In this document: piece after piece, positions 20,453 to 38,071 of the stretch | Layout of the letters: every line of letters starts with the position of its first letter | How positions within the stretch are numbered: the stretch's first letter is position 1 | Source: Armatimonadota bacterium | GTDB taxonomy: Bacteria; Armatimonadota; Zipacnadia; Zipacnadales; Zipacnadaceae | DNA length: 64,000 nt | Reading direction: 5' to 3' | Assembly (NCBI GenBank): GCA_036504235.1 | Contig: DASXVN010000005.1 | Span: 76,497 to 140,496 of the forward strand | Translations under genes and position numbers: made by a program | Notes under the pieces: generated by a model | Seen by the model: the letters and a program-made list of their open reading frames with translations, nothing else | Told to the model about the DNA's origin: nothing | The model's database searches: none

Positions 20453-20478
20453 GCGCCGCTGCAGGCCGGGAAGAAGAA

Positions 20479-23400: not shown

Positions 23401-25674
23401 ACCGCCCTGCGCTTGGACGGGGACGTCTTCACGCCGGTGGCGGCAATCGGGTTGCTGGACCCCTTCCTCTCCGGCGACGGCACCGGCGTGGATGTCTGGG
23501 ACAGCGACCTGGGGCATCACCGCTACCTCAACTGGCGGCCCAGTTTCTTCGCCGGGCACGTCGGGCAGATTTACACCTGGCACGACCAGAATGGGGACGG
23601 CAAGGTGCAGGCCGAGGAGATGCAATGGGCGCCCGTGGAGAAGTCCGCCGAGGTCCTGGCGCCCGGTCACTTCGGCAACTGGGACAACTACTGGGGCGGC
23701 GGGATTGGCCCGGACGGGAGCCTATACTTCCGCACCGTAAACGCCAAGCACCACCAGGTCTACCGGCTCGATGTGGAGGGCTGGACCGCCGCCGGCGCGC
23801 CGGTCTACACGCTGGCTAACGCGCACCGGATCATCTCCTCCGACGACCTGGGCTGGCTGGGCGGCCTGTACGTGACCAACGCGAACAAGCTGATCGCCAG
23901 CTACTCGCTCGAGTGGCCGCCGCTGCCCAAGAACGCGGTCGAGTGCTATGACCGAGACGGCAAGTTCCTGTGGGCCGTGGCTCGCTATCGGGGCGCGCAG
24001 CAGATTGACGACCCGGCGGCCACGAACATGTCCGGCGACTTCCCGGTGCCCGGCATGGGCAACGTGATCGGCTCCTGGGAGTGGCACCTCAACCAGCACT
24101 CCTACCTGCTAACCGACGACGGGCTGTACCTGTCGTGGCTCTGCGACGACAATGTGAGCGGCCCCACCCAGAACTGGGGCGAGTCCATGCGCAGCTACTT
24201 CCAGACCCCGGCGGGGGAGACCTATATTGTCAACGGGGGCGCTGACGCCTACCACCTCCTGCGGATCACGGGTCTCGAGGGCGCGCGGCGCTTCACGGGC
24301 CAGCTTGTGCTGACCGAGGCGGACGTGGCGAAGGCCGCTGCGGCCCGGGTGGCCGTGGCCTCGGCTCCGCCCCCACCGCCCCAGCCGGTGCTTCGCGTTA
24401 ACTGGCTCAAGCAGGCGCCGGTCGTGGACGGGGACCTCAGCGAGTGGAACCTGTCCGCGGGCGTCACGCTCAGCGCCGCGCAGAACCGCTCGGCGGAGGT
24501 GGCCCTGGGGCGCGACGCCGCGAACCTGTACCTGGCCTACCGGGTCCACGGGTCGGCGCTGTCCAACAAAGGCGCGGACTGGCGCACGCTGTTCCTGTCG
24601 GGGGATTGCGTGGACCTGATGCTGTCCACCGGCCCGGCGCTCGCGGCCAAGCACTTCGCCCCGGCGGCCGGCGACGAGCGGCTGCTGCTCAGCCTGTACA
24701 ACGGCGAGCCGACGGCGGTGCTCTATCGCCCGGTGGTGCCCGGCGCCACCACACCGGTGCGGCTGATGGCCACGACGCTGGATCAGATCACGCGGCTGGA
24801 CTCCGCGCACGTCGTCTTCCATCGCGAGGCGGACGGCTACGCAGTCGAGGCCTCCGTGCCGCTGACTGATCTGGGCCTCGACCCCGCGACGCCGACGGAC
24901 CTGCGGGGCGACGTGGGCGTGATCTACGCGGACCAGACGGGCGCCAACCGCGCCCTGCGCCAGTACTACTACAATCAGAACACCAAGATCGTCAACGATC
25001 TGACCACCGAGGCGACGCTGCAGCCGGGCGACTGGGGTCCGATCGAGATGGCGCTGGGCCCCAACCTGCTGAGCAATGGCGGCTTTGAGAGCCCCCTGGC
25101 CACCGACGTGACCCAGGGCTGGGTGCTCAACGATGTGCACCCCGGCACCCGGACCGCGGTGAGCGGCGAGGTGACGAACTCGGGCCACGGGGCGCTGCTG
25201 CTGCAGGCGGACCCGGTGGTGTTCACGCCGGAGTCGTATAGCCTGCCGGACTACCGGGCCTTCCTCGACTCCGCCAACGGCGGTAAGGGGGGCGGCCATG
25301 TGGCGGTGATGCAGACGGTGCCGGTGACCGCCGGCGCTCGCTACTGGGTGAAGGCGCATTACCGGACGCTGGAGATGTCGGGCTTCGAGAAGAAGAACCC
25401 GGGTCCGGGACGCGGCTACATCGCGCTCAGTCTCACGATCAACTGGCCGGACGCCAAGAACGGGCGGGAAAGCTGGCAGGGGGTTTTCTCCACCCAGTTG
25501 GACTACCCTGCCTGGCAGACCGCGGTAAGCGGCGTCCCGAATATAGTGACGGCCCCGTTCACCGCCCCCGAGGGCGCCACGCGGGCCACGGTCATCATTC
25601 GCTTCGTGGACAACTACGCCGACAAGCATCCGTCTGCCTGGGTGGATGACGTGGAGTTTGTGCCGGCACCGTAG
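20479..25674 (+). CDS. Giant secreted multidomain protein (1731 aa): CBM9/DOMON-like modules, NHL-type beta-propeller repeats and a C-terminal CBM4/9-like module.
   Basis: ATG 20479 gives signal peptide 'MRVSARFSGAAVAALLALLAHTTPAGAYA'. The ORF-track start at 19975 is an in-frame upstream extension that overlaps the previous gene. CBM9-like 'IDGDLSDWGGVRP...DDQALYVGIEWRG'. NHL-like 'DKDGNIYVSDWGASFQVKVFSPAGQLL' and 'GIAVTDAGKLWVAEDDN'. C-terminal 'GPNLLSNGGFESPLATDVTQGW...WVDDVEFVPAP'. Confidence 0.55.
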   Translation, partial: RLSMRVSARFSGAAVAALLALLAHTTPAGAYATAQPLLLNSISQVDPAPRIDGDLSDWGGVRPAPFVPFDLTQAADLTPELQRVAATVHAASVRAAYDDQALYVGIEWRGRPPVAGAQPGRASDALGLHVLSDRLAHFLCDPLAPGAQTRVRVRYGDNLNWSDAAGSGASCFVAVGADGKSYVQEMRLPWKTITSSGQAPADGRLRLMFDFSWSDLTSAIIAQAPLEVLHGQKFITATFLSSPDRLFDLSGYLPNVPTWGTLQFSTQLTPNETQPSPLATGATVTHVAPAGPSLAVDGDLQEWPAELFQTISYAPGYLGDRYSGKVAASYDANNLYLALHAHTGAAAYNVEHEANRRGYWGGDNLQVRLSDGKRTLNLCAWYDSLVKQPALTADGKDLAVPFLLKQGAREAYRSDADGQGYSLEIALPYTALGFAAPQAGSAWKGTFQLWWAALEPQFSGYSEATLQPRGGLAYRYTIPKDANVTLGAYDTEGRLLRWIVRGSYRHSGANVEYWDGLDQWGEPLAAGAYQVKGIAFSPLGLDYQFSIGNSGTPPWPTADGKGDWIGDESTPQAAATEGDWVYLASPCNEKGWSIVGVDGTGQRQWGFGTGVCPRSVSLTVAGDYLYALYSGPENTTTSRAYQPGSGEGRNVLVCLDKRTGKPASFSVLNPSLVVNRWPYNDDEVVSHLWDLRANKSFNAGNYGGQPRYSTHDIGESTNSLGIAATGGRLYLSLFYENKLWVLDAATAKQVDEIPVPQPVGLHALPGGKLLVVSGASVLEVDPQTKTTRPVIDHDLVAPHDVTLDKDGNIYVSDWGASFQVKVFSPAGQLLRAIGTPGGRPWVGKWDANGMLVPRGIAVTDAGKLWVAEDDNCPSRVSVWNAGTGALIRDYLGPSSYGGGNWFWVNPQDPTMIMTEGAMYKVDYAKRTWTPTSIALRRMSIDQPFMPNGAAGMPTARTVVHDGKPYLYVADNISITALRLDGDVFTPVAAIGLLDPFLSGDGTGVDVWDSDLGHHRYLNWRPSFFAGHVGQIYTWHDQNGDGKVQAEEMQWAPVEKSAEVLAPGHFGNWDNYWGGGIGPDGSLYFRTVNAKHHQVYRLDVEGWTAAGAPVYTLANAHRIISSDDLGWLGGLYVTNANKLIASYSLEWPPLPKNAVECYDRDGKFLWAVARYRGAQQIDDPAATNMSGDFPVPGMGNVIGSWEWHLNQHSYLLTDDGLYLSWLCDDNVSGPTQNWGESMRSYFQTPAGETYIVNGGADAYHLLRITGLEGARRFTGQLVLTEADVAKAAAARVAVASAPPPPPQPVLRVNWLKQAPVVDGDLSEWNLSAGVTLSAAQNRSAEVALGRDAANLYLAYRVHGSALSNKGADWRTLFLSGDCVDLMLSTGPALAAKHFAPAAGDERLLLSLYNGEPTAVLYRPVVPGATTPVRLMATTLDQITRLDSAHVVFHREADGYAVEASVPLTDLGLDPATPTDLRGDVGVIYADQTGANRALRQYYYNQNTKIVNDLTTEATLQPGDWGPIEMALGPNLLSNGGFESPLATDVTQGWVLNDVHPGTRTAVSGEVTNSGHGALLLQADPVVFTPESYSLPDYRAFLDSANGGKGGGHVAVMQTVPVTAGARYWVKAHYRTLEMSGFEKKNPGPGRGYIALSLTINWPDAKNGRESWQGVFSTQLDYPAWQTAVSGVPNIVTAPFTAPEGATRATVIIRFVDNYADKHPSAWVDDVEFVPAP

Positions 25675-25726: not shown

Positions 25727-25764
25727 CCTGCATCTATGACTGTCGGAGCAAAGGGTGAAGCTTG

Positions 25765-28700
25765 ATGAAATCGGTATACCTGGTCGTTCTTCTGGTCCTG
25801 GCGAGCTTGCTGCCGCTGGCCGCCTCGGCGGCGGTGCTGCGCGGCTTTGGCGCCGTGCAGGAATCCACGCTGCCCGCCGGGCAGGGGATGCGCTTTGTCT
25901 GCGATAGTCCGGAGCACGCCGTGCAGCTCATCCACAAACTGGCGCGGGATATGGAGCTGAGCGTCACCGCCAAGTCCGCGTGGGTGACCGTGGCGATCGG
26001 CGACCGGCAGGCGCCCGTCCTGGTGCGCCCGGGCCTGGGGTCCTACCTGGTGCTGGCGCAGGGGACGGACGCCTACTGCTTCACCTCCCCCGAGACGGAC
26101 GCCGCGAAGCTGGGCGCCGCCTTCCCGGCCGCCGCGCCGCTGCTCGCGGGGGCGCGGCTCTACGACGCGGCCTACCGCTATCCCATGTACCTGGACAAGT
26201 GGTCCACCGCCGGTATCGGCACCTGGTACACCCCCTTCAACCCCTTCGACGACAACCCCAAGGGCCTGAAGGACGTGGTCACTCCGCATTTCGAGTACCT
26301 CACCGAGAACAATCTGGCGGTTCACATCGGCGCGGGCGGGGCGGGGCGGCGGGAGACGGTGCCGTACATTCACAAGTACAATCGGCCCTTCCATATCGTG
26401 CAGTGGCATCAGTGGGACGCGGATATCGCCCGCCTGGACCCGTTCGATCTGACCCAGCCCAACCCCAACCTGTTCTCCACCTGGGAGTCCTATTACGGTC
26501 AGATCAGCAACGGCGGCGACCGGCTGCACCAGTACCGGGACTGGACCTTCCTGCGGCTGATGAAGGAATACGTCAACGATCCGCAACTGGTGGACTGGGA
26601 TGAGCCGCACGGCGAGATCGGGCCGGGGCCCTGGCAGCAATACTGGGACTACGGACCGCGCAACCAGGCGCATTTCGCGGCGTGGCTGCAGAGCGCGCGG
26701 GGCTATACCCTGCCCTCGCTGGGGCAGGCCTGGTACCACGACGGCGGGAAGTTCCGCACCTGGGAGCAGGTCCCTATCCCCTTTGACTACTCCTTCTTCG
26801 GCGCGGATAAGGACAGCCTCTTCGCGGACAAGGCCTGGAAGCTGCACACCGGCGACCTGGCTACCGGCCGGACCGGCAAGTGGCAGACCGCCGACTTTGA
26901 TGACTCGCAGTGGACGCCGATCACCAAGCCCGGCGGCGACCTGGGGATTATCGAGATCGAGACCCACCAGCGCTTCTGGTATCGCGGCACGATCAACGTG
27001 TCGGCCGAGTACCTCGCGAAGCACAAAGGCTCGCTGTATCTGGTCTGCGCGGCGATGACCCAGGCCGGCGGGCCGGAGGCCCCGAATCATATCTGGCTCA
27101 ATGGCGTCGAACTGGGTAGTCTGACCGGCCCGGGCGGCTTCTGGATCGTCGGCTCAAAGCTGGCGACCGGCGTGCTACATGCCGGAGCCAACCAGATCGC
27201 CTACTGCCCGACGGCGCCCGACTTTGCCGGGACCTTCTTCGTCTCGCCGCATCCGGTGGAGCGCTACCCCTTCCGCGACTCGGGCCTGAACTCCCGCTAC
27301 TCGGACTGGCGCGACTACGTGGCCTCCTGCGCGGTGGAGCAGGAGCGCAACACCATCCAGGCCATGCGCGGTCTCGACCCCAACCGGCCCATCAAGATCA
27401 TGGCCGCTGCCGACAAGGACCTGTTCAACGAAGTGATGTACGACTACGGCTGCTACTCGCACAATACCGGCGATGAGGCCTTCTACATGCCCTGGGATCG
27501 CCGCAGCGGCTACACCTACGGCCTGCCGGGATCAGCGGAGTCCTCGGGCAGCATGATTGATGTTCATTGGTACAAGCAATGGCAGGGCTGGTACACCTTC
27601 GAGTGCCTGAACGCCTTCGACAACTTCATCGATATCGAGGCGATGATGTACTCGCCGGCCACGCCGCTGTGGAAGGAGAACTTCCCCTACCTACATCTCT
27701 CCAACCGCTACGACCTGAAGAAACCGGAGATCGCCCTGCTGTTTTCCGGGGAGACCAATCGCCTAAATCCCGGCGAGATGGCGGCTATTCCCTTTGTCTT
27801 TGACCTGGGGCGCGGCGACCTGCATTCGATCGGTTACAGCTTTGCCTATGTGGATGAGCCCGCCCTCCGCCGCGGTCTGGCGAGTCCCTACCAGGTGATC
27901 ATCGACTGCGGCACTTGGGTAATGTCGCGGCAGACGGTGGCGGACCTGACCAAATACGTGGAGAACGGCGGCACCTACATCGCCCTGCAGGAGACCGGTC
28001 GGCACACCCCCGCCGAGCGCGACGCCTGGCCGATCAGCACGCTCACCGGCTTCCAGGTGCAGCAAGTGCGGCCGATGGGCGGCTTCGTTTCCATCCTGAA
28101 CGACCAGCCGGTCTTCACCAAGCTGGCCGGGAAGAACTTCATGAACCAGGGCCGCAGCGTGGACTACTCGGGCTACAACTACGCCGACGCCTGCCTCGCG
28201 CTGACCCCGGTGGCCCCGGATACGCAGGCCCTGGCGCGCTATCGCGACGGCTCGATTGCCATCGGCATGCGCAAGCTGGGCAAGGGGCGCGTGATTGTCC
28301 TGGGCAGCCCCTTCTGGCGTGATTCCTACGACAAGCGCGGCATGTGGTGGCCTGGCCCGCAGCAGAACGCCTTCGTCGAGGACCTGCTCACCGGCCTGGG
28401 CCTGCCGCCCGACGTCCCCGCCAACACCTCCGCGGTGTGGCGGGACCGCTTCGTGGCGAACAACGGCACCGAGGAATACCTCGTCATGTGGAATCCCAGC
28501 GACACCGATCCGCAGACCTTCACCACCGACTGGCATACCTCGTTCCCGGCGACGCAGGTGATTGACCCGAAGCTCGGCCAGCCGGTCGAGGCGCAGATTG
28601 ACGGTACGACGATCCACCTGGCGCAGTCGCTGCAGCCGCTGGAGACGCGCATCCTGGCCGTGCAGTCGCCGCGTCCGCCGGCGGATACCGTGGCCGACTG

Positions 28701-29577
28701 GTACGCCAAGACCGCGCTCTGGTGGAAGGGGACCAAACCGGGCCGCACCGTGGAATACCCCGATCTGCCCGTCTTCTATGCGCCCTTCCCGCCCGGCGCC
28801 GGCCAGATCGTGGAGACCAGCTACGTGAAGCCGGAGCTGCTTTCCGCCCTGTCCTCGACGCCCGGCACCGCCGAGGGCTGGGACAGCACGCTGGGGTTCA
28901 TCCAGCCCTTCTACGCCCTGAAGCCCATCACGCCGACCCAGTCGGTGCTGTACCGGAGCACCGTGGACACGCCGCCCTCCTGGAAACCGGGGGACCGCTA
29001 CGTCCTGCGCCTCCAGAGCCAGCCGCGGTATTACGAGGGCGGGTTCCGGGGCGAGGTCTACCTCAACGGCAAACAGCTCCCCGTCGCGGGAGAAATGGAC
29101 GTGTCCAAGGACCTCCGTTTCCCCGGCACCAATGTGCTGGTGATCCTGGCGGATCGGAACGGCTTCGCGGGCGACCCGGACCTGGTGCGCCAGCCGGCGC
29201 CGGCGGAGACGCTGCCGGTGGACGGCGAGTGGACGGTGCGCCTGGGCGAGGATACCGGCACTGGACCGGCGACAATTCCCGGGAGCTTCACCGGCCTGTA
29301 TGCCACCAAGAGCCTCGTGGTCCCGGCCTCCTGGAAGGGCTCGCACGTGTTCCTGAGCGCCCGCGCGAACTACTCGCGCATGGCGGTCAACGAGCGCGTC
29401 TTCTTCTTCAACAACCCGACCTCGTACTACATGGATGTCACCCCGTGGATCAAGTTCGGCCAGCCGAACCAGATCTTCCTGCAGCCCGGCGAGTCTTCCT
29501 CGCAGTGGAAACCGGGCAAGGTGACGGTAGACTCGATCGTGCTCGAGCGCGTGACGGAGGAGCAACTGAAGAAGTAG
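25765..29577 (+). CDS. Large secreted hypothetical protein (1270 aa) with a GATase1-like / beta-galactosidase-trimerisation-like module and a galactose-binding-like domain. Possible glycoside hydrolase.
   Basis: ATG 25765 follows RBS 'AAGGGTGA'. Signal peptide 'MKSVYLVVLLVLASLLPLAASAAV'. Motifs 'GKGRVIVLGSPFW' and 'DFDDSQWTPITKPGGDLGIIE...FWYRGTINV'. Confidence 0.5.
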   Translation: MKSVYLVVLLVLASLLPLAASAAVLRGFGAVQESTLPAGQGMRFVCDSPEHAVQLIHKLARDMELSVTAKSAWVTVAIGDRQAPVLVRPGLGSYLVLAQGTDAYCFTSPETDAAKLGAAFPAAAPLLAGARLYDAAYRYPMYLDKWSTAGIGTWYTPFNPFDDNPKGLKDVVTPHFEYLTENNLAVHIGAGGAGRRETVPYIHKYNRPFHIVQWHQWDADIARLDPFDLTQPNPNLFSTWESYYGQISNGGDRLHQYRDWTFLRLMKEYVNDPQLVDWDEPHGEIGPGPWQQYWDYGPRNQAHFAAWLQSARGYTLPSLGQAWYHDGGKFRTWEQVPIPFDYSFFGADKDSLFADKAWKLHTGDLATGRTGKWQTADFDDSQWTPITKPGGDLGIIEIETHQRFWYRGTINVSAEYLAKHKGSLYLVCAAMTQAGGPEAPNHIWLNGVELGSLTGPGGFWIVGSKLATGVLHAGANQIAYCPTAPDFAGTFFVSPHPVERYPFRDSGLNSRYSDWRDYVASCAVEQERNTIQAMRGLDPNRPIKIMAAADKDLFNEVMYDYGCYSHNTGDEAFYMPWDRRSGYTYGLPGSAESSGSMIDVHWYKQWQGWYTFECLNAFDNFIDIEAMMYSPATPLWKENFPYLHLSNRYDLKKPEIALLFSGETNRLNPGEMAAIPFVFDLGRGDLHSIGYSFAYVDEPALRRGLASPYQVIIDCGTWVMSRQTVADLTKYVENGGTYIALQETGRHTPAERDAWPISTLTGFQVQQVRPMGGFVSILNDQPVFTKLAGKNFMNQGRSVDYSGYNYADACLALTPVAPDTQALARYRDGSIAIGMRKLGKGRVIVLGSPFWRDSYDKRGMWWPGPQQNAFVEDLLTGLGLPPDVPANTSAVWRDRFVANNGTEEYLVMWNPSDTDPQTFTTDWHTSFPATQVIDPKLGQPVEAQIDGTTIHLAQSLQPLETRILAVQSPRPPADTVADWYAKTALWWKGTKPGRTVEYPDLPVFYAPFPPGAGQIVETSYVKPELLSALSSTPGTAEGWDSTLGFIQPFYALKPITPTQSVLYRSTVDTPPSWKPGDRYVLRLQSQPRYYEGGFRGEVYLNGKQLPVAGEMDVSKDLRFPGTNVLVILADRNGFAGDPDLVRQPAPAETLPVDGEWTVRLGEDTGTGPATIPGSFTGLYATKSLVVPASWKGSHVFLSARANYSRMAVNERVFFFNNPTSYYMDVTPWIKFGQPNQIFLQPGESSSQWKPGKVTVDSIVLERVTEEQLKK

Positions 29578-29729: not shown

Positions 29730-31142
29730 ATGAGGGTGCTCGTCATCAACACCAATCGCGAGAGATCGCCCCAGGCGCTTCTCCCAATAGGCGCTTGCCT
29801 GGTGGCTGCGGCGGCGGAACGCGCGGGCCAGGAGGTGCGTTTTCTCGACCTTTGCTTCTCCCGAGACCCCCGGCGCGCCGCGGCGGCGGCGGTCGCCAGC
29901 TTTTCCCCAGACGTCATCGGCCTCTCGATCCGCAACCTCGACAACTGCGACTACCTGAATCCGCACAGCTATCTGCCGGCAGGCCGCGATCTGGTGGCGA
30001 CGCTCCGGGCCGCGTGTTCGGCGGAGATCGTCCTCGGCGGGTCCGCGGTTAGCCAGGTGCCTTTCGCCCTGGCGCGGTATCTCGGCTGCCGCTGGGCCGT
30101 AGTGGGCGCGGGCGAGGTGACCTTTCCGGCGCTGCTGCAGGCCCTCGCGGACGGCGCCGACCCGGCGGCCCTCCCGGGAGTGGCGGACGCGGAGCGGGAG
30201 GACCTCTTTGTCCCCGCCCCACCGGGCGAGGACCTGTCCGCGCCGCAATCCCCCGCGCTGGAGCGCTGGCTGGACCTGTCGCGCTATCGGGCCCGCGACG
30301 CCTCCTGGCCTGTCCAGAGCAAGCGCGGGTGCGCCTCCCGCTGCACCTATTGTGTGTACCCGCTCCTGGAGGGCGCCACCTATCGCCGGCGGGAGCCGGA
30401 ACTGGTGCGGGAAGAGGCCGCGACCGCCCGGCGCGCCGGTCTCCGCCTGGTGGAGTTTGTGGACAGCATCTTCGGCCTGCCCGCCGACCACGCGCTGGCC
30501 TGCTGTGAGGCGCTGGCCCGCCGCCCGGTGGGGCTGCCCCTGTCCGCGATGGAGCTTAACCCCGCCGCGATCACCCCGGAGCTGGTGGGGGCGATGAACG
30601 CCGCGGGCTTCTCGGGCGTGGCGGTCACCGCCGAGAGCGGCTCGGACGCCATGCTGGCGAGTCTGGGCAAGGGCTTCACCGCGGAGGCGCTCGGCCAGGC
30701 GCGCGATCACCTGCGGCATTTGCGGGCCTCCGTGATGTGGATCTTCCTGCTGGGGGGCCCGGGGGAGACGCCGGAGACGGTGCGCGAGACGGCGCGGTTC
30801 CTGGACACGCTGCCGCCCTCGCACCTGGTCCTGGTCACGCACGGGGTGCGCGTGCTGCCCCGCACCGCCCTGCACGGCCGGCTCCTCGCGAGCGGGGAAC
30901 TGTCGCCCGCGGAGGATCTGCTGCTGCCCACCTTCTACCATTCACCGGCGATTACGCCCGCCGCTTCCGAGCGGATTCTCGCCGAGAGCCGGTTTCCCGT
31001 TGGCTCGCGCGTCATGCTGGGAGACGGCGGCCACCGCTGGCTGCCGCTGGCGCAGCGCGTAATGGCCACCTGCGGGGTGCGTCCGCCGTACTGGCGGCAA
31101 CTGCGGTCGCTAAATCGCTTGCGGAGGGTGCTGGGCGCGTGA
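29730..31142 (+). CDS. B12-binding-domain radical SAM protein (class B rSAM).
   Basis: N-terminal Rossmann-like B12-binding region 'MRVLVINTNRERSPQALLPIGACLVAAAA...GLSIRNLDN'. Canonical CxxxCxxC 'CASRCTYC' and 'VEFVDSIFG'. Length and layout are typical of the HpnJ/BchE-type B12-rSAM family. Confidence 0.7.
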   Translation: MRVLVINTNRERSPQALLPIGACLVAAAAERAGQEVRFLDLCFSRDPRRAAAAAVASFSPDVIGLSIRNLDNCDYLNPHSYLPAGRDLVATLRAACSAEIVLGGSAVSQVPFALARYLGCRWAVVGAGEVTFPALLQALADGADPAALPGVADAEREDLFVPAPPGEDLSAPQSPALERWLDLSRYRARDASWPVQSKRGCASRCTYCVYPLLEGATYRRREPELVREEAATARRAGLRLVEFVDSIFGLPADHALACCEALARRPVGLPLSAMELNPAAITPELVGAMNAAGFSGVAVTAESGSDAMLASLGKGFTAEALGQARDHLRHLRASVMWIFLLGGPGETPETVRETARFLDTLPPSHLVLVTHGVRVLPRTALHGRLLASGELSPAEDLLLPTFYHSPAITPAASERILAESRFPVGSRVMLGDGGHRWLPLAQRVMATCGVRPPYWRQLRSLNRLRRVLGA

Positions 31143-31171
31143 CCTGCGGACGCCCGAGGAGGGATAGAACC

Positions 31172-31639
31172 ATGGTCACCACGGATGAGATAGTTATGCA
31201 GGCGCCGCCCGACGCGATCTTCCGCGCCGCGTCCGAGGTTGAGCGCTGGCCTCACTTACTCCCGCATTACCGGTGGGTGAAGGTCCTGGAGCGGGACGGC
31301 GACGCGTGCCTGGTGGAGATGGCGGCGCGTCGCGGGCCCTTCCCCGTGAAGTGGACCTCCCTCAAGACGCAAGACGCGGAGGCGCTGACCGTCCATTACC
31401 GCCACGTGGGCGGCCCCACCCGGGGCATGCGCGTGGTCTGGCTCATTGAGCCTGGTCCCGACGGGACGCTGGTCAGCATCGTCCACGACTTCCGGCTCGA
31501 GATCCCAGTCTTGCGCAGCCTGCCCGGCCAGTTGATCATCGGCCACTGTTTCGTAAAACCGATCGCCAATCGCACCTTACAGCATCTCAAAGCCCACGTG
31601 GAGGCCTCCTCATGCGCCGAGCCGTCCTTACCGGAATAG
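31172..31639 (+). CDS. SRPBCC-superfamily protein (polyketide cyclase/dehydrase, Polyketide_cyc2-like).
   Basis: 'GGAGG' RBS plus ATG 31172. The ~155-aa sequence 'APPDAIFRAASEVERWPHLLPHYRWVKVLERDGD...' has the START/Bet v1-like pattern. It overlaps the next gene by 28 nt. Confidence 0.55.
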   Translation: MVTTDEIVMQAPPDAIFRAASEVERWPHLLPHYRWVKVLERDGDACLVEMAARRGPFPVKWTSLKTQDAEALTVHYRHVGGPTRGMRVVWLIEPGPDGTLVSIVHDFRLEIPVLRSLPGQLIIGHCFVKPIANRTLQHLKAHVEASSCAEPSLPE

Positions 31640-32844
31640 GCCCTATCACCCCCATAGGCGTCGGCAAGGAGGCGTTCTGGGCGGGCTTGCAGGCCGCGCG
31701 CTCCGGCATTGGGCCGATCACGCACTTTGATGCCTCCGGCTTGCGCTCGCAGATGGCTGGGGAGGTCACGGGCTTCGACCCCGCCGTCTGGCTGGATGAG
31801 AAACGGCTCAAACGTACTGACCGCTTCTCGCAGTTCGCGATCGTGGGGGCGCGGCTGGCCCTGGCGGACGCCGGTCTGGACCTGGCGCAGGAGGACCTGA
31901 CGCGCGTGGGCGTCTCGCTGGGGTCGGCGTTGGGCGGGATCGCCTTCGCCGAGCGTGAGGTGGGGGTTCTCAACGGCGAGGGCCTGCGCGAGGTGGACCC
32001 CTCGCTGGCGCTGTGCGTTTTCTGCGGCGCCGGCAGCTCCAATATCGCCATTGATCTGGGCGCGACCGGCCCGGCCTCGGCCAACTCGAATAGCTGCGCC
32101 TCGGGCACCGTCGCGCTGGGGCAGGCCCTGGACTGTATCCGCACCGGCCGCGCCGATGTGGTGCTCGCCGGCGGCGCGGAGGCCCCCCTGGCCCCGCTCT
32201 GCTTCGGCGCTTTCACCCTGCTGCGGGCCATGTCCTGCCGCAACGACGAGCCGGAGCGCGCCTGCCGCCCCTTTGACGTGGACCGCGACGGCTTTGTCAT
32301 GGCCGAGGGGGCCTCGCTGATGGTGATGGAGGAGCGGGAGCACGCCCTCGCACGCGGGGCCCATATCTACGCCGAGGTCGCCGGCCATAGCCTCACCAAC
32401 GACGCCTACCACATGGCTGCCCCCCGTCCGGACGGCTCCTCGGCGGCGCGGGCCATGACCATCGCCCTGGCCGACGCCGACCTGAGCCCGCGCGACATCG
32501 GCTACATCAACGCGCACGGCTCTTCGACGCCGCTCAATGACAAGACCGAAACTCTGGCGATCAAAACAGTTTTCGGGGCGCACGCCTACGACCTGGCGAT
32601 CAGCAGCACCAAGGGCCACCATGGCCACTCCCTGGGCGCGGCCGGCGCGTTGGAGGCGGCCGCCTGCGCGCTCGCGCTGGACCACGGCTGGCTGCCGCCC
32701 ACTGTCAACCTCGACACCCCTGACCCGGAGTGCGATCTGGACTATGTGCCCCGGGCGGGCCGCGACCGCGCGATAGACGCCCTGCTCAGCAACAGCTTTG
32801 GCTTCGGGGGGATCAACGCGTGCGTGGTGATGACCAAGCCTTGA
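31612..32844 (+). CDS. Beta-ketoacyl-ACP synthase I/II family (FabF/FabB-like condensing enzyme).
   Basis: Active-site Cys in 'NSNSCASGTVALGQA'. His motifs 'INAHGSSTPLNDKTETLAIKTVFG' and 'SSTKGHHGHSLGAAGALEA'. C-terminal 'FGFGGINACVVM'. RBS 'GGAGG' 6 nt before ATG 31612. Confidence 0.75.
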   Translation: MRRAVLTGIGPITPIGVGKEAFWAGLQAARSGIGPITHFDASGLRSQMAGEVTGFDPAVWLDEKRLKRTDRFSQFAIVGARLALADAGLDLAQEDLTRVGVSLGSALGGIAFAEREVGVLNGEGLREVDPSLALCVFCGAGSSNIAIDLGATGPASANSNSCASGTVALGQALDCIRTGRADVVLAGGAEAPLAPLCFGAFTLLRAMSCRNDEPERACRPFDVDRDGFVMAEGASLMVMEEREHALARGAHIYAEVAGHSLTNDAYHMAAPRPDGSSAARAMTIALADADLSPRDIGYINAHGSSTPLNDKTETLAIKTVFGAHAYDLAISSTKGHHGHSLGAAGALEAAACALALDHGWLPPTVNLDTPDPECDLDYVPRAGRDRAIDALLSNSFGFGGINACVVMTKP

Positions 32845-33566
32845 TCGGTCCTCACCCCCCTGACCAGGCCGTAGCCGCCGGGAGCGGCGAGTTCCTGGAC
32901 GACCCGGCCACTCCCGCCGCGGCCCTCCGCGCCACCCTGCGCGACCAGGCCTGGATTAACCGCTACCTGGGCGGTGGTCAGGCCACCTGGGCGCACGCCG
33001 GGCCCTATCTGCGCCGGTGCTCTTCCGACCCGCTCCGGGTGCTGGAGATCGGCTGCGGCGGTGGCGATATCCTGCGCCGGTTGGTGGCTGCGGCGCGCCG
33101 CCCGGGGAGGCCCCTTGTGGCGGTCGGGCTGGACCGGAACCCCCGGGTGCTGGCCTGCGCGGCCGAGTGGTCGCGGGACTACCCGGAGATCCGCTTGCTC
33201 TGCGCCGACGCGCTGGACCTGCCCCTGCGCCCGGGCTCGTTTGATCTGGTGCTCCTGCCCACGTTTCTCCACCACCTCCCGCCGGACCGCGCGCCGGCCC
33301 TCCTGCGCGAGGCCGCCCGCCTCAGCCGCGGTCTAGTCGTGGTGGCCGACCTGGCGCCCTCGCCCCTGGCCCGGCTCGGCTGGCCGCTGCTGGCCGCGCT
33401 GCTGCGGCTGCACCCGGTATCGCGCCACGATGGCCTGCTCTCCCTGCGCCACGCCCCCGCCCCCGCGGACCTCGCCGCCTGCGCCCGCGCCGCCGGCCTG
33501 CGCGACTGGAGTCTGCACCGCCATCCCTGGTGCCGCCAGGCGCTGGTCTGCCCCGGCGCGGGCTGA
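32841..33566 (+). CDS. Class I SAM-dependent methyltransferase.
   Basis: 'VLEIGCGGGDILRRLV' is SAM-binding motif I, and 'FDLVLLPTFLHHL' is a post-I-like motif. The start is uncertain: TTG 32841 overlaps the KS stop (TTGA), and the ORF track runs from 32730 inside the KS gene. Confidence 0.5.
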   Translation: MIGPHPPDQAVAAGSGEFLDDPATPAAALRATLRDQAWINRYLGGGQATWAHAGPYLRRCSSDPLRVLEIGCGGGDILRRLVAAARRPGRPLVAVGLDRNPRVLACAAEWSRDYPEIRLLCADALDLPLRPGSFDLVLLPTFLHHLPPDRAPALLREAARLSRGLVVVADLAPSPLARLGWPLLAALLRLHPVSRHDGLLSLRHAPAPADLAACARAAGLRDWSLHRHPWCRQALVCPGAG

Positions 33567-33664: not shown

Positions 33665-34624
33665 ATGGAGAATTCAGGACGCTATCTGATACTGGTTCTG
33701 GCCGCGGTCCTGGCGCTTACGGCCCTGGCGGTCGCGCCGGTCGCCGTCTATGCCGCTGACGCGCCGGCCATGATGGTCGCCAGTAGCAGCACGGCCGTGC
33801 AGTTCCGCGCGGACATGCGCCGGCTCTGGGAAGACCACATCATCTACACGCGCGGGGTCATCATCAGCGTGGCCGCCGGCTTGCCCGATGCCGATGCGGT
33901 AAGTGCGCGGCTGATGCAGAACCAGGTGGATATCGGCAACGCGGTGAAGCCCTACTACGGCGACGCGGCGGGGGAGAAGCTGACCGCGCTGCTCAAGGAG
34001 CATATCAACGGGGCTGGCCAGGTGCTGGGGGCGGCCAAGGCCGGCGACCAGGACAAATTGGCTGCGGCGCAGAAGGCGTGGTACGCCAACGCCAACGAAA
34101 TCGCGGCCTTCCTCAATGGCGCGAACCCGGACAACTGGCCCCTCGCCGATCTCCAGGGCATGATGAAGACGCACCTCGACACGACCACCGCGGAGGCCGT
34201 CGCGCGGCTGAAGGGCGACTGGGCAGGCGACCTGGCGGCTTTCGACAAGGTGCAGACGCACATTCTCATGATGTCCGATGCGCTGAGCCTGGGGATAATC
34301 CAGCAGTTCCCGGCCAAGTTCGCCGAGGCGCCGGACGCTCAGGTTTCGATGAACGATAATGCCTTTGACCCGCAGGAAGTGACCGTGGCGGCCGGCAGCA
34401 CCGTCGTCTGGACCAACCAGGGCGAGCACCCGCACAACGTCACCGCCGACACCGGGGGCGGGCCGAAGTCCGGGACTATCCAGCCGGGGGAGAGCTACCA
34501 GTGGGTAGTTCCGGCCGGGGCCGTGGCGGGCGCCAAGTACTTCTACCACTGCTCCTTCCACGCCCCGGCGGGCGACGGGACGACCCTGGGGCCGAACATG
34601 AGCGGCGTCGTCATTGTGAAGTAA
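33665..34624 (+). CDS. Secreted cupredoxin (type-1 copper, plastocyanin/azurin-like) domain protein with a ~240-aa N-terminal domain of unknown function.
   Basis: Signal peptide 'MENSGRYLILVLAAVLALTALAVAPVAVYA'. C-terminal 'VVWTNQGEHPHNVT...KYFYHCSFHAPAGDG...NMSG' supplies the His/Cys/His/Met copper ligands. RBS 'AAGGAG'. Confidence 0.55.
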   Translation: MENSGRYLILVLAAVLALTALAVAPVAVYAADAPAMMVASSSTAVQFRADMRRLWEDHIIYTRGVIISVAAGLPDADAVSARLMQNQVDIGNAVKPYYGDAAGEKLTALLKEHINGAGQVLGAAKAGDQDKLAAAQKAWYANANEIAAFLNGANPDNWPLADLQGMMKTHLDTTTAEAVARLKGDWAGDLAAFDKVQTHILMMSDALSLGIIQQFPAKFAEAPDAQVSMNDNAFDPQEVTVAAGSTVVWTNQGEHPHNVTADTGGGPKSGTIQPGESYQWVVPAGAVAGAKYFYHCSFHAPAGDGTTLGPNMSGVVIVK

Positions 34625-34881: not shown

Positions 34882-35952
34882 ATGGCCGCACCGATCCGCA
34901 TGCCCGATCTGGGCACGACCGTTGATGAATGTATGATTATGGGCTGGCGCGTTGCGGAGGGCGACACCGTGGCCCTCGGCGATATCCTGGCCGATATTGA
35001 GACCGACAAGGCGATCATCGAACTGGAGTCGGTCGCCGCCGGCGTCGTGCTCAAGCTGCTGGCCGAGGCCGACGCGATGGTGCAGGTCGGCGACGTGCTG
35101 GCCTACATCGGCGAGCCGGGCGAGGCCCTCCCCGAGGAGGCTCCCGCCGCGCCCGTGGCGGTCGCGCCGCTAGTCCGGAATCTGGCCGCCAAACTGGGCG
35201 TAGACCTGGCGACCGTCACCGGCACCGGCCAGGGCGGCGTCCTTACCCGTGAGGATGTCCAACGCGCGAGTCAGGCCCCCGTCGCGCCGGCTGAGCCGGA
35301 GGGCGCCGCCCTTTCCCGCGTGCAGGAGGCCGTGGCGCGGGCGGTGGCGAGCAGTTGGGCGGACAAGCCGCATACTTATTTCACCGCCGCCGTGGACATG
35401 ACCGCGGCGGTGGCGCTCCGCGAGCGCGCGCAGGCCGAGGGCAGTCCGCTCAGCCACGACGCGCTGCTGCTGGCCGCGATGGCGGCCGCCCTGCCGGAGT
35501 TCCCCGCGCTGCGCTCGGTCTGGCAGGAGGGCCGCGTGGTGGCGATCCCCGGCCTGCATCTGGCGGTGGCCATTGGCCGGGAGCAGGAGCTGTTTCTCCC
35601 GGTGATCTTCGACGTGGACCGGCTCTCCCTGGCGCAGGTGCAGGCGCAACTCAACGAACTGGTCGCCGAGATTCAGGCGGGCACCCTCCCGGCCTCGCGC
35701 CTGACCGGCGCATGTCTCGCCCTGACCAATCTCGGCATGTTCCCGATTGAGTCCTTCGACCCGATCATCTTCCCCGAGCACAGCGCGATCCTCGCGGCCG
35801 GAGCGGTCACGCTGACGCCCGTAGCGGTTGACGGGCAGGTCGTGATCCGCCCGATTATGCGCATGACCCTGGCCGCCGACCACCGCGTCATCAACGGCCG
35901 CACCGCCGCCGGCTTCCTCGCCGCCGTCAAGGCACATCTGGAGACAGTCTAG
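34882..35952 (+). CDS. Dihydrolipoamide acyltransferase (E2) of a 2-oxoacid/acetoin dehydrogenase complex.
   Basis: Lipoyl domain 'ADIETDKAIIELES' (lipoyl-Lys). Peripheral-subunit-binding domain 'LVRNLAAKLGVDLATVTGTGQGGVLTREDV'. Catalytic 'DHRVINGRTAAGFL'. Confidence 0.7.
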   Translation: MAAPIRMPDLGTTVDECMIMGWRVAEGDTVALGDILADIETDKAIIELESVAAGVVLKLLAEADAMVQVGDVLAYIGEPGEALPEEAPAAPVAVAPLVRNLAAKLGVDLATVTGTGQGGVLTREDVQRASQAPVAPAEPEGAALSRVQEAVARAVASSWADKPHTYFTAAVDMTAAVALRERAQAEGSPLSHDALLLAAMAAALPEFPALRSVWQEGRVVAIPGLHLAVAIGREQELFLPVIFDVDRLSLAQVQAQLNELVAEIQAGTLPASRLTGACLALTNLGMFPIESFDPIIFPEHSAILAAGAVTLTPVAVDGQVVIRPIMRMTLAADHRVINGRTAAGFLAAVKAHLETV

Positions 35953-35974
35953 CTTTAGCTGTGCAAGCCTTACT

Positions 35975-36019
35975 CCCCCTCTCCTGCGGCGTTCGTCGGC
36001 GAACGCCCCGGAGAGGGGG
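35975..36019 (+). promoter_or_regulatory. Strong intercistronic hairpin between the E2 and E1-alpha genes.
   Basis: Two-tier stem 'CCCCCTCTCC...GGCGTTCG tcgg CGAACGCC...GGAGAGGGGG', followed by a G/C-run mini-hairpin and the RBS 'AAGGAG'. No U-tract. Confidence 0.4.
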
Positions 36020-36052
36020 CGGGGGGGGTGAGGCCTCCCCCGAAGGAGTAAC

Positions 36053-37012
36053 ATGGCACACGACGCACCCTTATTGATATCGCTGTACCGCCAGATGGTG
36101 ATGATTCGCCAGTTTGAGGAGCGCGTGAAGTTCCTCTTTCTGGAGGGCATCATGCCCGGCACCATTCACCAGTACCAGGGCCAGGAGGCCGTCGCCGTGG
36201 GCGTGTGCAGCGCGCTCGACCCGGGCGACGTGATCACCAGCACCCACCGCCCGCACGGCCACGCGATTGCGCGCGGGCTGAGTGTCGAGTCCATGATGCA
36301 CGAGCTATTCGGCAAGGCCACCGGCTGCTGCCACGGCAAGGGCGGCTCCATGCACCTCGGCGACCTGGAGCAGGGGATGCTGCCCGCCATCGCCATTGTC
36401 GGGGGCGGCGTGCCGATTGCCACCGGCATCGCCCTGGCCTTCCAGATGCGCCGGGAGCCGCAGGTGGCGGTCTGCTTCATGGGCGACGGCGCGACCAACG
36501 AGGGCGCCTTCCACGAGGCGGTCAACATGGGCGCGATCTGGTCGCTGCCGGTCGTCTACGTCATCGAGAACAACCGCTACAGCGCCTCCACGCCCATCTG
36601 CCAGACCGCCAAAGTGCCGCACCTCTCCGATCGCGCCTGCGCTTACGGGATCCCCGGCGTCACGGTGGACGGCAACGACCTGCTGGCCGTCCGCGAGGCC
36701 GCGCAGACGGCGCTGGCCCGCGCCCGTGGGGGAGAGGGGCCGACGCTCCTGGAGGGCATGACCTACCGCCTCACCGGCCATTCGCGCCGCGACCCTTGTG
36801 CCTACCAGCCGGAGGAGGAGCGCCGGCGCGCCCAGGAGCAGGAGCCGATCGGGCGCTTCGGCGCATGGCTGCTGGCCGAGGACGTCGCCGACCAGCCGGC
36901 GTTGGACGCGGTGCGCGCTGAGGTGGACGCCGAGATCGAAGCGGCCGTCCAGTCGGCCAGCGCCGCGCCCGATCCCGCGCCGCAAGATGCGCTCAACGAC
37001 GTCTTCGCCTAA
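36053..37012 (+). CDS. TPP-dependent 2-oxoacid (pyruvate/acetoin) dehydrogenase E1 component, alpha subunit.
   Basis: 'YRQMVMIRQFEERV', 'GTIHQYQGQEAVAVG' and 'MGDGATNEGAFHEAVNMGAIWSLPVVYVIENNRY' (TPP-binding GDG...N motif). Confidence 0.75.
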   Translation: MAHDAPLLISLYRQMVMIRQFEERVKFLFLEGIMPGTIHQYQGQEAVAVGVCSALDPGDVITSTHRPHGHAIARGLSVESMMHELFGKATGCCHGKGGSMHLGDLEQGMLPAIAIVGGGVPIATGIALAFQMRREPQVAVCFMGDGATNEGAFHEAVNMGAIWSLPVVYVIENNRYSASTPICQTAKVPHLSDRACAYGIPGVTVDGNDLLAVREAAQTALARARGGEGPTLLEGMTYRLTGHSRRDPCAYQPEEERRRAQEQEPIGRFGAWLLAEDVADQPALDAVRAEVDAEIEAAVQSASAAPDPAPQDALNDVFA

Positions 37013-37030
37013 ACTCTCAGGAGGAAACTT

Positions 37031-38047
37031 GTGGCTCATATCACGATAGCGGAAGCCTTGCGCGATGGTTTGCGCGAGGAGATGGCGCGCGATGACCGCG
37101 TGTTCTGCATTGGCGAGGATATCGGCATCCCCGGCGGCTGGGGCGGCGCTTTCACGGTGACGCTCGGGCTGGAGAAGGACTTCCGGGAGCGGATCATTGA
37201 CACGCCGATCTCCGAGGCCGGCTTCTTCGGCGTGGCGCTGGGCGCGGCGGTGATGGGCCTGCGCCCGGTGGCCGACGTGCAGTACAGCGACTTTCTCTTC
37301 TGCGCGATGGACCAGGTCGTCAACCAGATCGCGACCCTGCGCTACATGTCGGGCGGGAAGGTCACCGTGCCCCTGGTGATGCGCGCCCCGGTCGGCGCCA
37401 CCGGTCGCGGGGCCCAGCACGCCCGCAATCCGGAGGCCATCTTCTACGGCATCCCCGGCCTGAAAATCGTCTGCCCCGCCACCGCCTACGACGCCAAGGG
37501 CCTGCTCAAGGCGGCTATCCGCGAGGACAATCCGGTGCTGATCTTCGAGCATAAGCTGCTCTACGGCTCCAAGGGCGCACGGGCGGAGTCGGGCAACATC
37601 GACGCCTCCAGCGAGGTCCCGGCGGAGGACTATATCGTACCGATTGGCTCAGGGATCGTGCGGCGGGAGGGCAGCGACGTGACGATCATCGGTACGCTCC
37701 TGATGATGCACCGCGCGCTGCTGGCGGCCGAGCGCCTGGCGGCCGAGGGGATCAGCGCCGAGGTCATCGACCCGCGCAGCCTGGTGCCCTTCGACTGGCC
37801 GCTGGTGGAGGCCTCCGCGCAAAAGACCGGCCGCGCGGTGATTGTCGAGGAGGGCCCGCGCACCGGTGGCATTGGCGGCGAGCTGGCCGCGACGCTCTCC
37901 GAGCGCCTGGTCGACTACCTGCTGGCCCCGGTCGCGCGGGTGGCCTCGCCGGATATCCCGGTGCCCTTCGCTCCGCCGATGGAGGATTTCTACCGCCCGA
38001 CCGTAGAGCGAATCATGGAGGCAGCGCGCGTCGTCGTGAACGGGTAG
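37031..38047 (+). CDS. 2-oxoacid dehydrogenase E1 component, beta subunit.
   Basis: GTG start 5 nt after 'AGGAGGA'. Motifs 'DDRVFCIGEDIG..GGWGGAF', 'RIIDTPISEAGFFGVALGAAVMGLRPV' and 'RAPVGATGRGAQH'. Confidence 0.75.
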   Translation: MAHITIAEALRDGLREEMARDDRVFCIGEDIGIPGGWGGAFTVTLGLEKDFRERIIDTPISEAGFFGVALGAAVMGLRPVADVQYSDFLFCAMDQVVNQIATLRYMSGGKVTVPLVMRAPVGATGRGAQHARNPEAIFYGIPGLKIVCPATAYDAKGLLKAAIREDNPVLIFEHKLLYGSKGARAESGNIDASSEVPAEDYIVPIGSGIVRREGSDVTIIGTLLMMHRALLAAERLAAEGISAEVIDPRSLVPFDWPLVEASAQKTGRAVIVEEGPRTGGIGGELAATLSERLVDYLLAPVARVASPDIPVPFAPPMEDFYRPTVERIMEAARVVVNG

Positions 38048-38071
38048 GCGCCGTCTCAAGGAGTGCTCACC

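Follow-up and report, generated by a model that had tools for sequence, protein, structure and literature searches.

This locus raises the question of whether four small, closely packed genes form one biosynthetic unit and, if they do, what kind of molecule that unit makes. The genes lie in the 64-kb window, by which we mean the whole stretch of Armatimonadota DNA analysed here (part of a metagenome-assembled genome; GC content approximately 69%), and together they occupy 3.8 kb. They encode a cobalamin-binding radical S-adenosylmethionine (SAM) enzyme, called rSAM below, an SRPBCC protein, a ketosynthase (KS), and a SAM methyltransferase (MT). The initial annotation of the window had proposed an undescribed lipid or polyketide tailoring system using housekeeping acyl carrier protein (ACP), and this remains a fair description. 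Comparison with related loci indicates that the cassette is probably a compact, oxygen-independent variant of a widespread and uncharacterised gene cluster built like the operons for phenolic lipids. In this cluster, a translationally coupled SRPBCC protein and FabF-derived KS seem to stand in for the type III polyketide synthase (PKS) of those operons.

All four reading frames lie on the forward strand at the positions first assigned to them (Table 1), and the four domain calls are supported by both Pfam and NCBIfam. The tight packing reported by the initial annotation is also real: the first 28 nt of the KS gene lie within the SRPBCC gene, and the MT start shares 4 nt with the KS stop at a TTG codon (cTTGAtc). 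The SRPBCC ATG is preceded by a good Shine-Dalgarno sequence, with GAGGAGGG just upstream. An alternative MT start exists at an in-frame GTG at position 32730, from which the frame is open, but the short form beginning at TTG is favoured because homologous MTs are 238 to 248 aa long. A promoter and terminator scan around the cassette gave nothing above shuffled expectation.

The conservation of the four genes was assessed in two sets of related loci. The rSAM-centred set contains 86 loci, 80 from a scan of a genome collection with an alignment of rSAM homologues and 6 contexts fetched earlier, mapped by tblastn, open reading frame (ORF) clustering, and Pfam. An alignment of the SRPBCC protein run against metagenomes gave at least 582 matching stretches; 80 of these loci were analysed and, with 3 contexts fetched earlier, make up a set of 83 SRPBCC-centred loci. 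The same four genes in the same order are present at three further loci of Armatimonadota type (L007, L008 and L173), and another Armatimonadota locus (L009) has the quartet reordered as rSAM-MT-SRPBCC-KS. Protein identities for the quartet lie between 42 and 69%, and GC contents of the genomes run from 52 to 69%. Longer forms are found in Gemmatimonadaceae, where the order is DUF92-rSAM-FAD enzyme-flavin reductase-MT-SRPBCC-KS (FAD, flavin adenine dinucleotide), and in two Armatimonadota loci (L174 and L175), where it is rSAM-MT-U32-like protein-(second rSAM)-coiled-coil protein-SRPBCC-KS. The four genes form a module that is conserved beyond chance across genomes and phyla. The initial annotation had allowed that the genes might be conserved individually without being neighbours in related genomes; synteny mapping finds them co-localised.

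The most constant part of the module is the SRPBCC-KS pair. A KS gene lies directly downstream of the SRPBCC gene in 69 of the 73 metagenome loci with room for one. Between the SRPBCC stop and the start of the KS gene the median distance is 2 nt, and in 70 of 87 pairs it lies in the range from -37 to +30 nt. Where both flanks are complete (20 SRPBCC loci), an MT is always present, a flavoenzyme is present in 17, a UbiA-family prenyltransferase in 6, and an rSAM in one. Among the arrangements are MT-FAD-SRPBCC-KS, MT-SRPBCC-KS-FAD, and SRPBCC-KS-MT. Named sources, among them Armatimonadota, Chloroflexota, Thermomicrobiales, and Gemmatimonadaceae, represent at least three named phyla, and the family is common in uncultured soil and sediment lineages. 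The conserved core is therefore the near-obligate SRPBCC-KS pair, extended by the MT to SRPBCC-KS-MT, and the rSAM is an accessory found in Armatimonadota and some Gemmatimonadaceae. Since close rSAM homologues also stand alone (L001 and L002) or occur only with an MT, a U32-like protein and a second rSAM (L003 and L004), we regard the rSAM as a mobile accessory and not as the anchor of the module. No ACP gene adjoins an SRPBCC-linked KS in the 83 SRPBCC-centred loci or in related loci, and no FabZ, FabG, or desaturase-like gene accompanies the pair in the loci mapped.

A natural fusion gives a weak hint that a KS and an SRPBCC protein are able to work together as a single unit. The protein, P0447 of our representative library (604 aa), joins a FabF-like KS (residues 11-419, 46% identity) to a C-terminal SRPBCC-like domain (residues 455-566, 22% identity, E 3e-8). 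Apart from this weak case, a search of the N-terminal extensions of the KS representatives found no similarity to cluster proteins. A further FabF paralogue coupled to a small lipid-binding protein occurs on a plasmid of Streptomyces sp. NBC_01383 (L181, 268-6170), in company with an SCP2 sterol-binding protein, a FAD oxidoreductase, a P450, an ACP, and FabG. An apparent KS-rSAM fusion at two other loci (L050 and L052) was rejected: the 790-aa ORF is an open upstream frame in GC-rich DNA, and the KS and rSAM are in different frames.

Is the KS of the window simply a housekeeping FabF? Its sequence has the N- and C-terminal ketoacyl-synt domains of Pfam, an intact triad of Cys162 (codon 32095-32097), His302 (32515-32517), and His339 (32626-32628), as well as Lys334 and Phe398. 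It passes the NCBIfam fabF equivalog model TIGR03150 (523 bits against a cut-off of 493.75), which is why annotation pipelines name it FabF. The residues that define the FabF biochemical type, namely the Cys-His-His triad, Lys335, the gating Phe400, Asp265, and Asn404, are all present and are invariant in the clade to which it belongs. The original description of a bona fide Cys-His-His condensing enzyme of FabF type is thus accurate. We placed the KS in a neighbour-joining tree of 127 sequences with 100 bootstraps, comprising 64 SRPBCC-linked KSs, 4 anchors from fab contexts (E. coli acpP-fabF, Thermomicrobium roseum fabD-fabF, Monoglobus acpP-fabF, and E. faecalis fabF-fabZ), 3 KSs linked to ACP and type III PKS genes, 51 library representatives, and 5 other KSs. 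All 64 SRPBCC-linked KSs fall into one clade with a bootstrap of 99/100, which also takes in L084, L089, and six library representatives, and all four FabF anchors lie outside it. Changes specific to the clade (I108L, F133L, V134A, T137V, I138F, I159N, A162S, and T305S in E. coli numbering) sit in the acyl pocket and beside the active-site cysteine.

These results bear on the simplest alternative, which is that there is no dedicated pathway: the KS would be housekeeping FabF, and the other three genes would be unrelated neighbours, or the SRPBCC protein a RatA-type toxin. The annotation of the KS as beta-ketoacyl-ACP synthase II and its TIGR03150 score agree with such a view, as do the names carried by SRPBCC homologues, which JGI labels 'ribosome-associated toxin RatA' and, in one case, NCBI labels 'type II toxin-antitoxin system RatA family toxin'. 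We give this alternative very little credence. SRPBCC-KS adjacency recurs in approximately 70 independent metagenome loci, and all three KS homologues at 63 to 68% identity whose contexts were checked (L173-L175) are SRPBCC-linked. The RatA assignment is rejected, as the operon partners argue against it and no antitoxin-like gene is among them. Housekeeping FabF, which the initial annotation had itself offered as a way in which its proposal might fail, is strongly disfavoured by gene context, with no ACP adjoining, and by a clade that stands apart from the fabD- and acpP-linked FabFs.

Because the clade keeps every catalytic and ACP-gating residue, the KS is predicted to be competent for decarboxylating condensation and to require substrates bound to ACP, presumably the cell's own AcpP. 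The initial annotation had stated that the cassette carries no ACP, ketoreductase, or enoylreductase. For the ACP this is correct, as tblastn of the window found none; ketoreductase and enoylreductase were not searched for explicitly. The tblastn searches also found no homologues of type III PKS, U32 proteins, or flavin monooxygenases in the window.

The SRPBCC protein resembles polyketide cyclases in both sequence and predicted structure. It matches the Pfam families Polyketide_cyc (PF03364) and Polyketide_cyc2 (PF10604), in keeping with its first description as a polyketide cyclase or dehydratase-like protein of Bet v1/START fold. Sequence matches in the PDB are the aromatase/cyclases (ARO/CYCs) WhiE, BexL, and TcmN, with E values from 4e-9 to 1e-6. 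An AlphaFold2 model (pLDDT 93.8) has the helix-grip fold, and its top Foldseek matches are TTHA0849, TcmN, ZhuI, and WhiE at TM scores of about 0.8. Homologues in an annotated plasmid collection are exclusively Streptomyces type II PKS aromatase/cyclases, at 30 to 35% identity. The TcmN pocket residues W28, Y35, W65, and S67 are kept, and an alignment of the family shows invariant polar residues (H32, Y33, R34, R54, H78, H105, and E144) that look catalytic and not merely lipid-binding. By comparison, the COQ10-like structure CC1736 (1T17) is a weak sequence match (E 0.017), and PF03364 is all that the protein has in common with RatA and COQ10.

A discrete KS of the FabF/KS-alpha superfamily beside a helix-grip protein of ARO/CYC type recalls the type II PKS systems of TcmN, WhiE-ORFVI, and ZhuI. 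The cassette differs from these in having no chain-length factor, dedicated ACP, or ketoreductase, and its KS groups with FabF and not with KS-alpha. The SRPBCC protein differs from the aromatase/cyclases of these systems in that TcmN Arg69 is replaced and the family has invariant His, Arg, and Glu residues of its own. The locus has one KS only, and neither a further KS nor an ACP was found in the window or next to the pair at related loci, so that the parts of a minimal type II PKS are incomplete.

The methyltransferase leads to a different class of operon. As first annotated, it is a SAM methyltransferase, with Pfam matches to Methyltransf_25 and Methyltransf_11 and SAM motif I (VLEIGCGGGD) at nt 33039-33068. 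Its only notable NCBIfam match is PRK06202, at 131 bits. The window MT found no match in the annotated plasmid collection at E 1e-10, and the MT of a related locus (L088), used as the query, reached homologues in operons of the MT-oxidoreductase-type III PKS kind. These are an operon of Paludisphaera borealis and the type III PKS-MT-FAD operons of Roseomonas and Paracoccus. Compared directly, the window MT and the P. borealis operon MT share 37% identity (E 1e-16), and the operon MTs also match PRK06202 best (232, 136, and 116 bits). The flavoenzymes of SRPBCC-KS clusters align over nearly their full length with the operon oxidoreductases at 28 to 34% identity, and MT and FAD enzyme taken together range from 28 to 38% against their counterparts in the three operons. 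NCBIfam signatures common to both operon types are PRK06202 and GG-red-SF/QhpG. Also of this kind are the srsABC operon of Streptomyces griseus and the operons for polyketide quinones in mycobacteria. The planctomycete type makes alkylresorcinols and is related to cyanobacterial hidABC, which makes hierridins (PMC10896814).

In the MT-FAD-SRPBCC-KS clusters, the SRPBCC-KS pair stands where MT-FAD-type III PKS operons have the type III PKS. Both are small operons with the carbon-skeleton enzyme at the end, both use an MT of the PRK06202-like family and, in most related clusters, the same flavoenzyme family, and the rSAM family of the window is itself found mostly beside type III PKS genes. The window cassette thus has an MT homologous to a tailoring enzyme of the alkylresorcinol operons and not their core: a type III PKS is absent from the window and from all 83 SRPBCC-centred loci, and a putatively ACP-dependent SRPBCC-KS pair is there instead. 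The window cassette further differs in having a cobalamin radical SAM enzyme and no flavin oxidoreductase. Judged by family membership, the nearest known systems are the MT-oxidoreductase-type III PKS operons for phenolic lipids, and not the hopanoid or BchE systems.

The genomic partners of the rSAM family point to the same operons. A type III PKS gene adjoins the rSAM in 56 of the 86 rSAM-centred loci, alone in 53 and with a different KS in 3 (all Nitrospirota, with an ACP detected in each). An SRPBCC gene is the partner in 11 loci, 9 with a KS and 2 with the KS lost at the contig end; 3 loci have a KS alone, and 16 have none of these genes. Type III PKS and SRPBCC never occur together, either in the 86 rSAM-centred or in the 83 SRPBCC-centred loci, so the two are mutually exclusive. 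In most of the rSAM-type III PKS loci, the gene encoding the type III PKS sits directly downstream of the rSAM on the same strand. These loci come from the anammox genera Scalindua, Brocadia, and Jettenia and from Nitrospirota, Desulfobacterota, and Elusimicrobia; a full set in Desulfuromonadales reads FAD monooxygenase-MT-DUF2147-rSAM-type III PKS. In a tree of the rSAMs, the SRPBCC-linked members are not monophyletic, with a Gemmatimonadaceae clade at 100% support and the Armatimonadota sequences elsewhere. This pattern suggests that partners have been swapped more than once, but the deep branches of the tree are weakly resolved.

The rSAM itself is a class-B enzyme, as first proposed. It has B12-binding (PF02310, 48.3 bits, cut-off 32.1) and Radical_SAM (PF04055, 51.8 bits, cut-off 29.5) domains, and the CASRCTYC motif at residues 201-208 (nt 30330-30353) supplies the cysteines C201-X3-C205-X2-C208, which are invariant in 28 homologues. 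The scores against HpnJ (67 bits, cut-off 578), BchE (24, cut-off 481), BzaD (162, cut-off 450), and TsrM-type models (124, cut-off 500) exclude all four assignments. The kinship to the hopanoid HpnJ pathway that the initial annotation had entertained is accordingly not supported, nor is a placement with BchE. The 'ladderane' lipid family TIGR04072 is the best-scoring NCBIfam model (267 bits), followed by BzaD and then the TsrM type, but the score is below the cut-off of 360. Five relatives from anammox bacteria, a Geobacter-type genome, Nitrospirota, Gemmatimonadaceae, and Armatimonadota also fall short of it, at 290 to 333 bits. The rSAM belongs to an unnamed sister family of TIGR04072.

The best PDB sequence match of the rSAM is TsrM (6WTE, E 1e-31). 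TsrM Arg69, which sits beneath the corrin ring, aligns with Arg68 of the rSAM, a residue that does not vary within the family. Among relatives whose function has been assigned, HMM and PDB searches place TsrM (tryptophan C2) and BzaD (benzimidazole C6, predicted) closest, although identities are low, scores lie far below the cut-offs, and TsrM Glu273 is not conserved. TsrM is a characterised C-methylase of aromatic (Csp2) carbon, and BzaD is a predicted one (PMC12931638).

Taken together, these findings are best explained by an ACP-dependent KS and cyclase that make a phenolic polyketide or lipid, which is then methylated by the MT and rSAM. We judge this reading to have about an even chance of being correct. 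Gene content, conservation, family membership, and mutual exclusivity with type III PKS are observed; the substrates, the product, an iterative mode of KS action without reduction, and the rSAM reaction are inferred as follows. The KS would take an acyl-ACP from the housekeeping fatty-acid synthase and extend it with malonyl-ACP without full reduction. The SRPBCC protein would bind the reactive beta-keto chain, and fold and aromatise it to a resorcinol- or pyrone-type ring. The PRK06202-type MT would then methylate the phenol, and the cobalamin rSAM would add an oxygen-independent modification, most probably a methyl group attached to a carbon of the aromatic ring. As the initial annotation had said, the arrangement matches no characterised pathway: full-text literature searches and reviews of radical SAM enzymes gave no match, and in these sources we found no description of the rSAM-type III PKS pair, of the SRPBCC-KS-MT cluster, or of SRPBCC together with UbiA and ketoacyl genes.

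Several observations weigh against this route to a phenolic product. No member of the cluster family has a known product, and a hydroxylase, a thioesterase, and an ACP are all missing from the window cassette. The KS stays very close to FabF, passing the fabF cut-off with all its gating residues kept, and we know of no FabF-type homodimer that builds a poly-beta-keto chain and leaves it unreduced in the absence of a chain-length factor or dedicated ACP. The catalytic Arg69 of TcmN is Lys in the window SRPBCC protein and Gln in most of the family, so that its chemistry, with an invariant residue set of its own, may differ from that of TcmN; moreover, its best fold match, TTHA0849, is a protein without an assigned function. 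TsrM Glu273, which ligates the unique iron of the Fe-S cluster, aligns with Ile247 of the rSAM. Since this ligand is missing, canonical radical chemistry on an sp3 carbon, or a role as a cyclase, is possible. At the three Nitrospirota loci, an ACP and a different KS coexist with a type III PKS, so a KS beside an rSAM need not replace a PKS. Finally, a UbiA prenyltransferase is encoded in approximately 30% of related clusters, a hint that the product is prenylated and not alkyl.

Some of the same points favour a reading in which the cassette tailors fatty acids. A specialised FabF would elongate an unusual acyl-ACP, the rSAM and MT would add methyl branches or rings to an aliphatic chain, in the manner proposed for clusters of ladderane type, and the SRPBCC protein would be a lipid carrier or dehydratase. 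The best NCBIfam model of the rSAM is TIGR04072, and anammox ladderane clusters likewise combine B12-rSAMs, FabF homologues, and SAM MTs (PMC13459092, PMC2649909). The KS keeps the malonyl-binding as well as the ACP-gating residues of a fabF equivalog, changes such as I108L and F133L fall in its acyl pocket, and COQ10 and RatA are among the lipid binders of the SRPBCC superfamily (PF03364). We nevertheless consider this reading improbable. Every rSAM family member tested scores below the TIGR04072 cut-off (267 to 333 bits against 360), and the usual neighbour of the family is a type III PKS and not a fatty-acid synthase gene. The MT and FAD partners come from families of alkylresorcinol operons, and the SRPBCC protein, with its many invariant polar residues, is closest in sequence to ARO/CYCs. 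The cassette resembles the ladderane clusters in having a B12-rSAM, at least one FabF-like KS, and a SAM MT, but those clusters have amxACP and amxFabZ, for which, as for desaturase-like genes, the SRPBCC-KS loci have no counterpart, and the cassette has an SRPBCC protein.

The rSAMs of the window family in anammox genomes also adjoin type III PKS genes and not genes of fatty-acid synthase type. A B12-rSAM is directly followed by a type III PKS in metagenome-assembled genomes of anammox bacteria at L013, L016, L022, L026, L031, L034, L048, L056, L063, and L080. PKS-like enzymes were reported to be lacking in an early comparative analysis of Kuenenia (PMC2649909), and the anammox rSAM-type III PKS pair seems not to have been considered in work on ladderanes.

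A second rival, which overlaps in part with the phenolic-lipid route, is that the product is the head group of a quinone or quinol. The KS and SRPBCC proteins, or a type III PKS in other lineages, would supply a small aromatic acid or resorcinol that is hydroxylated, O- and C-methylated by the MT and rSAM, and in some lineages prenylated by UbiA to give a polyketide-derived respiratory electron carrier. Hydroxylation would fall to the FAD enzyme in aerobes and to a U32-like Fe-S protein in anaerobes, and the window would hold a reduced version. The FAD enzymes match UbiH/Coq6 and MenJ/GG-reductase models. The UbiA prenyltransferase genes adjoining 6 of the 20 full contexts occur in three arrangements and suggest that some cluster versions make a prenylated product; UbiA-family genes beside MT-FAD-SRPBCC-KS clusters are found at L089 (8517-9419, reverse strand), L097, L099, L117, L121, L136, and L172.

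U32-like proteins accompany an MT and rSAM in Armatimonadota, Nitrospirota, and Desulfuromonadales. Members of this family are encoded at L003 (10275-11513), L064 (7042-8265), L011 (8614-9858, reverse strand), L174 (1420-2658), L175 (3157-4374), and L094 (2657-3877). They are approximately 410 aa long, share 67% mean column identity across three phyla, and have only a weak match to Peptidase_U32. Ten cysteines are invariant, including a C-terminal CX4CX2CX2C motif, and the genes always adjoin a PRK06202-type MT and B12-rSAMs. The U32 proteins UbiU and UbiV are oxygen-independent hydroxylases of ubiquinone synthesis, and we regard the U32-like protein as a candidate oxygen-independent Fe-S hydroxylase.

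Respiratory genes are also found near rSAM clusters. COX1 and SCO1 lie beside rSAM-type III PKS pairs at L021, L039, L044, and L059, and heme-A genes (CtaA/CtaB) lie beside the clusters of Gemmatimonadaceae. Cupredoxin or COX2-like genes (C19 and C30), which are unrelated to that of the window, lie beside rSAM-type III PKS pairs at eight loci (L014, L027, L034, L040, L046, L063, L067, and L070). The loci with COX1 and SCO1 and those with cupredoxins belong to Nitrospirota and Planctomycetota. The window has a blue-copper protein gene of its own shortly downstream of the MT (Table 1). One report describes polyketide quinones from type III PKS operons of mycobacteria and Streptomyces as respiratory carriers (PMC9927152). 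On the other side, the window and the three loci of identical order have no hydroxylase or prenyltransferase, so quartets of the window type could not by themselves suffice for a quinone. Other Armatimonadota quartets do not share the cupredoxin neighbour, and the oxidase-gene neighbourhoods may reflect lineage-specific synteny. To our knowledge, there is no report of such a quinone from these phyla. On balance, we think a quinone head group unlikely.

A broader and equally speculative proposal would unite the two sets of clusters. In this proposal, SRPBCC-KS and rSAM-type III PKS clusters would be two versions of a single unrecognised pathway to a polyketide-derived, methylated membrane quinol or quinone. 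The pathway would have an oxygen-dependent form with a flavin hydroxylase and an oxygen-independent form with a U32 Fe-S protein and B12 radical SAM enzyme. It would span Armatimonadota, Gemmatimonadota, Chloroflexota, Nitrospirota, Desulfobacterota, and the anammox Planctomycetota, and a FabF-type KS homodimer with a cyclase on housekeeping ACP would be a new minimal PKS architecture, functionally like a type III PKS. We doubt that all of these elements hold jointly. The flavin-dependent and U32/B12-rSAM versions do appear to alternate between clusters. A similar alternation of oxygen-dependent and oxygen-independent enzymes is known for ubiquinone biosynthesis, and because of this resemblance the clusters may produce a redox lipid of the membrane under anoxic conditions.

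The cassette is, in its make-up, an operon of phenolic-lipid type whose core synthase is non-homologous and which includes a cobalamin radical SAM enzyme, and it belongs to a large, cross-phylum, and unstudied cluster family. If the phenolic-lipid route is correct, the SRPBCC-KS pair provides a second, non-homologous bacterial route to phenolic lipids, in which a KS of fatty-acid type and a small cyclase work on the cell's own ACP. Genome mining for type III PKSs or pairs of KS and chain-length factor would probably miss this route, and pipelines label its KS 'FabF'. The cobalamin rSAM family has so far been discussed only in connection with ladderane lipids; its usual partner in our loci, anammox genomes included, is a type III PKS.

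The features of the window at and around the cassette are listed in Table 1.

Table 1. Cassette genes and flanking features of the 64-kb window.
Feature	Position (nt)	Strand	Remarks
Large ORF, weak NHL/SGL beta-propeller matches only	19975-25674	+	1899 aa, upstream of cassette
Large ORF, no Pfam match	25762-29577	+	1271 aa, directly upstream of cassette
rSAM, class-B (cobalamin-binding) radical SAM enzyme	29730-31142	+	470 aa
SRPBCC (helix-grip) protein, polyketide aromatase/cyclase type	31172-31639	+	155 aa
KS, FabF-derived ketosynthase	31612-32844	+	410 aa, SRPBCC-linked KS clade
MT, class I SAM methyltransferase, PRK06202-like	32841-33566	+	241 aa from TTG
Membrane-anchored blue-copper protein	33665-34624	+	319 aa, 98 nt downstream of MT
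2-oxoacid dehydrogenase E2, E1alpha, E1beta, then PfkB-family sugar kinase	34882-39025	+	after cupredoxin gene

The initial annotation had placed the cassette between glycan-degradation genes and a region of cupredoxin and 2-oxoacid dehydrogenase genes. Pfam confirms the downstream flank; the upstream flank is unverified because the two large ORFs there match only NHL/SGL or no Pfam family. Long antisense ORFs overlap both, as expected for GC-rich DNA. The blue-copper protein starts with a signal or anchor at its N-terminus, and its C-terminal part is a type-1 copper (cupredoxin) domain containing the motif ...HCSFH...M. We excluded it from the cassette because this neighbour is not conserved in other quartets, and the cupredoxins at rSAM-type III PKS pairs give no tblastn match to it. 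The E2 protein has lipoyl, E3-binding, and catalytic domains. This 2-oxoacid dehydrogenase could be of the branched-chain type that supplies acyl primers, and its genes are not kept beside other quartets. The flanks of the quartet at L173, a contig of nearly genome length (ENA ERZ21831265 ctg82136l, 3.25 Mb, 52% GC), are glycosidase genes of GH127, GH3, and GH42-like type. The source label of that contig, 'uncultured Desulfobulbus sp.', looks doubtful, as its proteins are closest to those of Armatimonadota.

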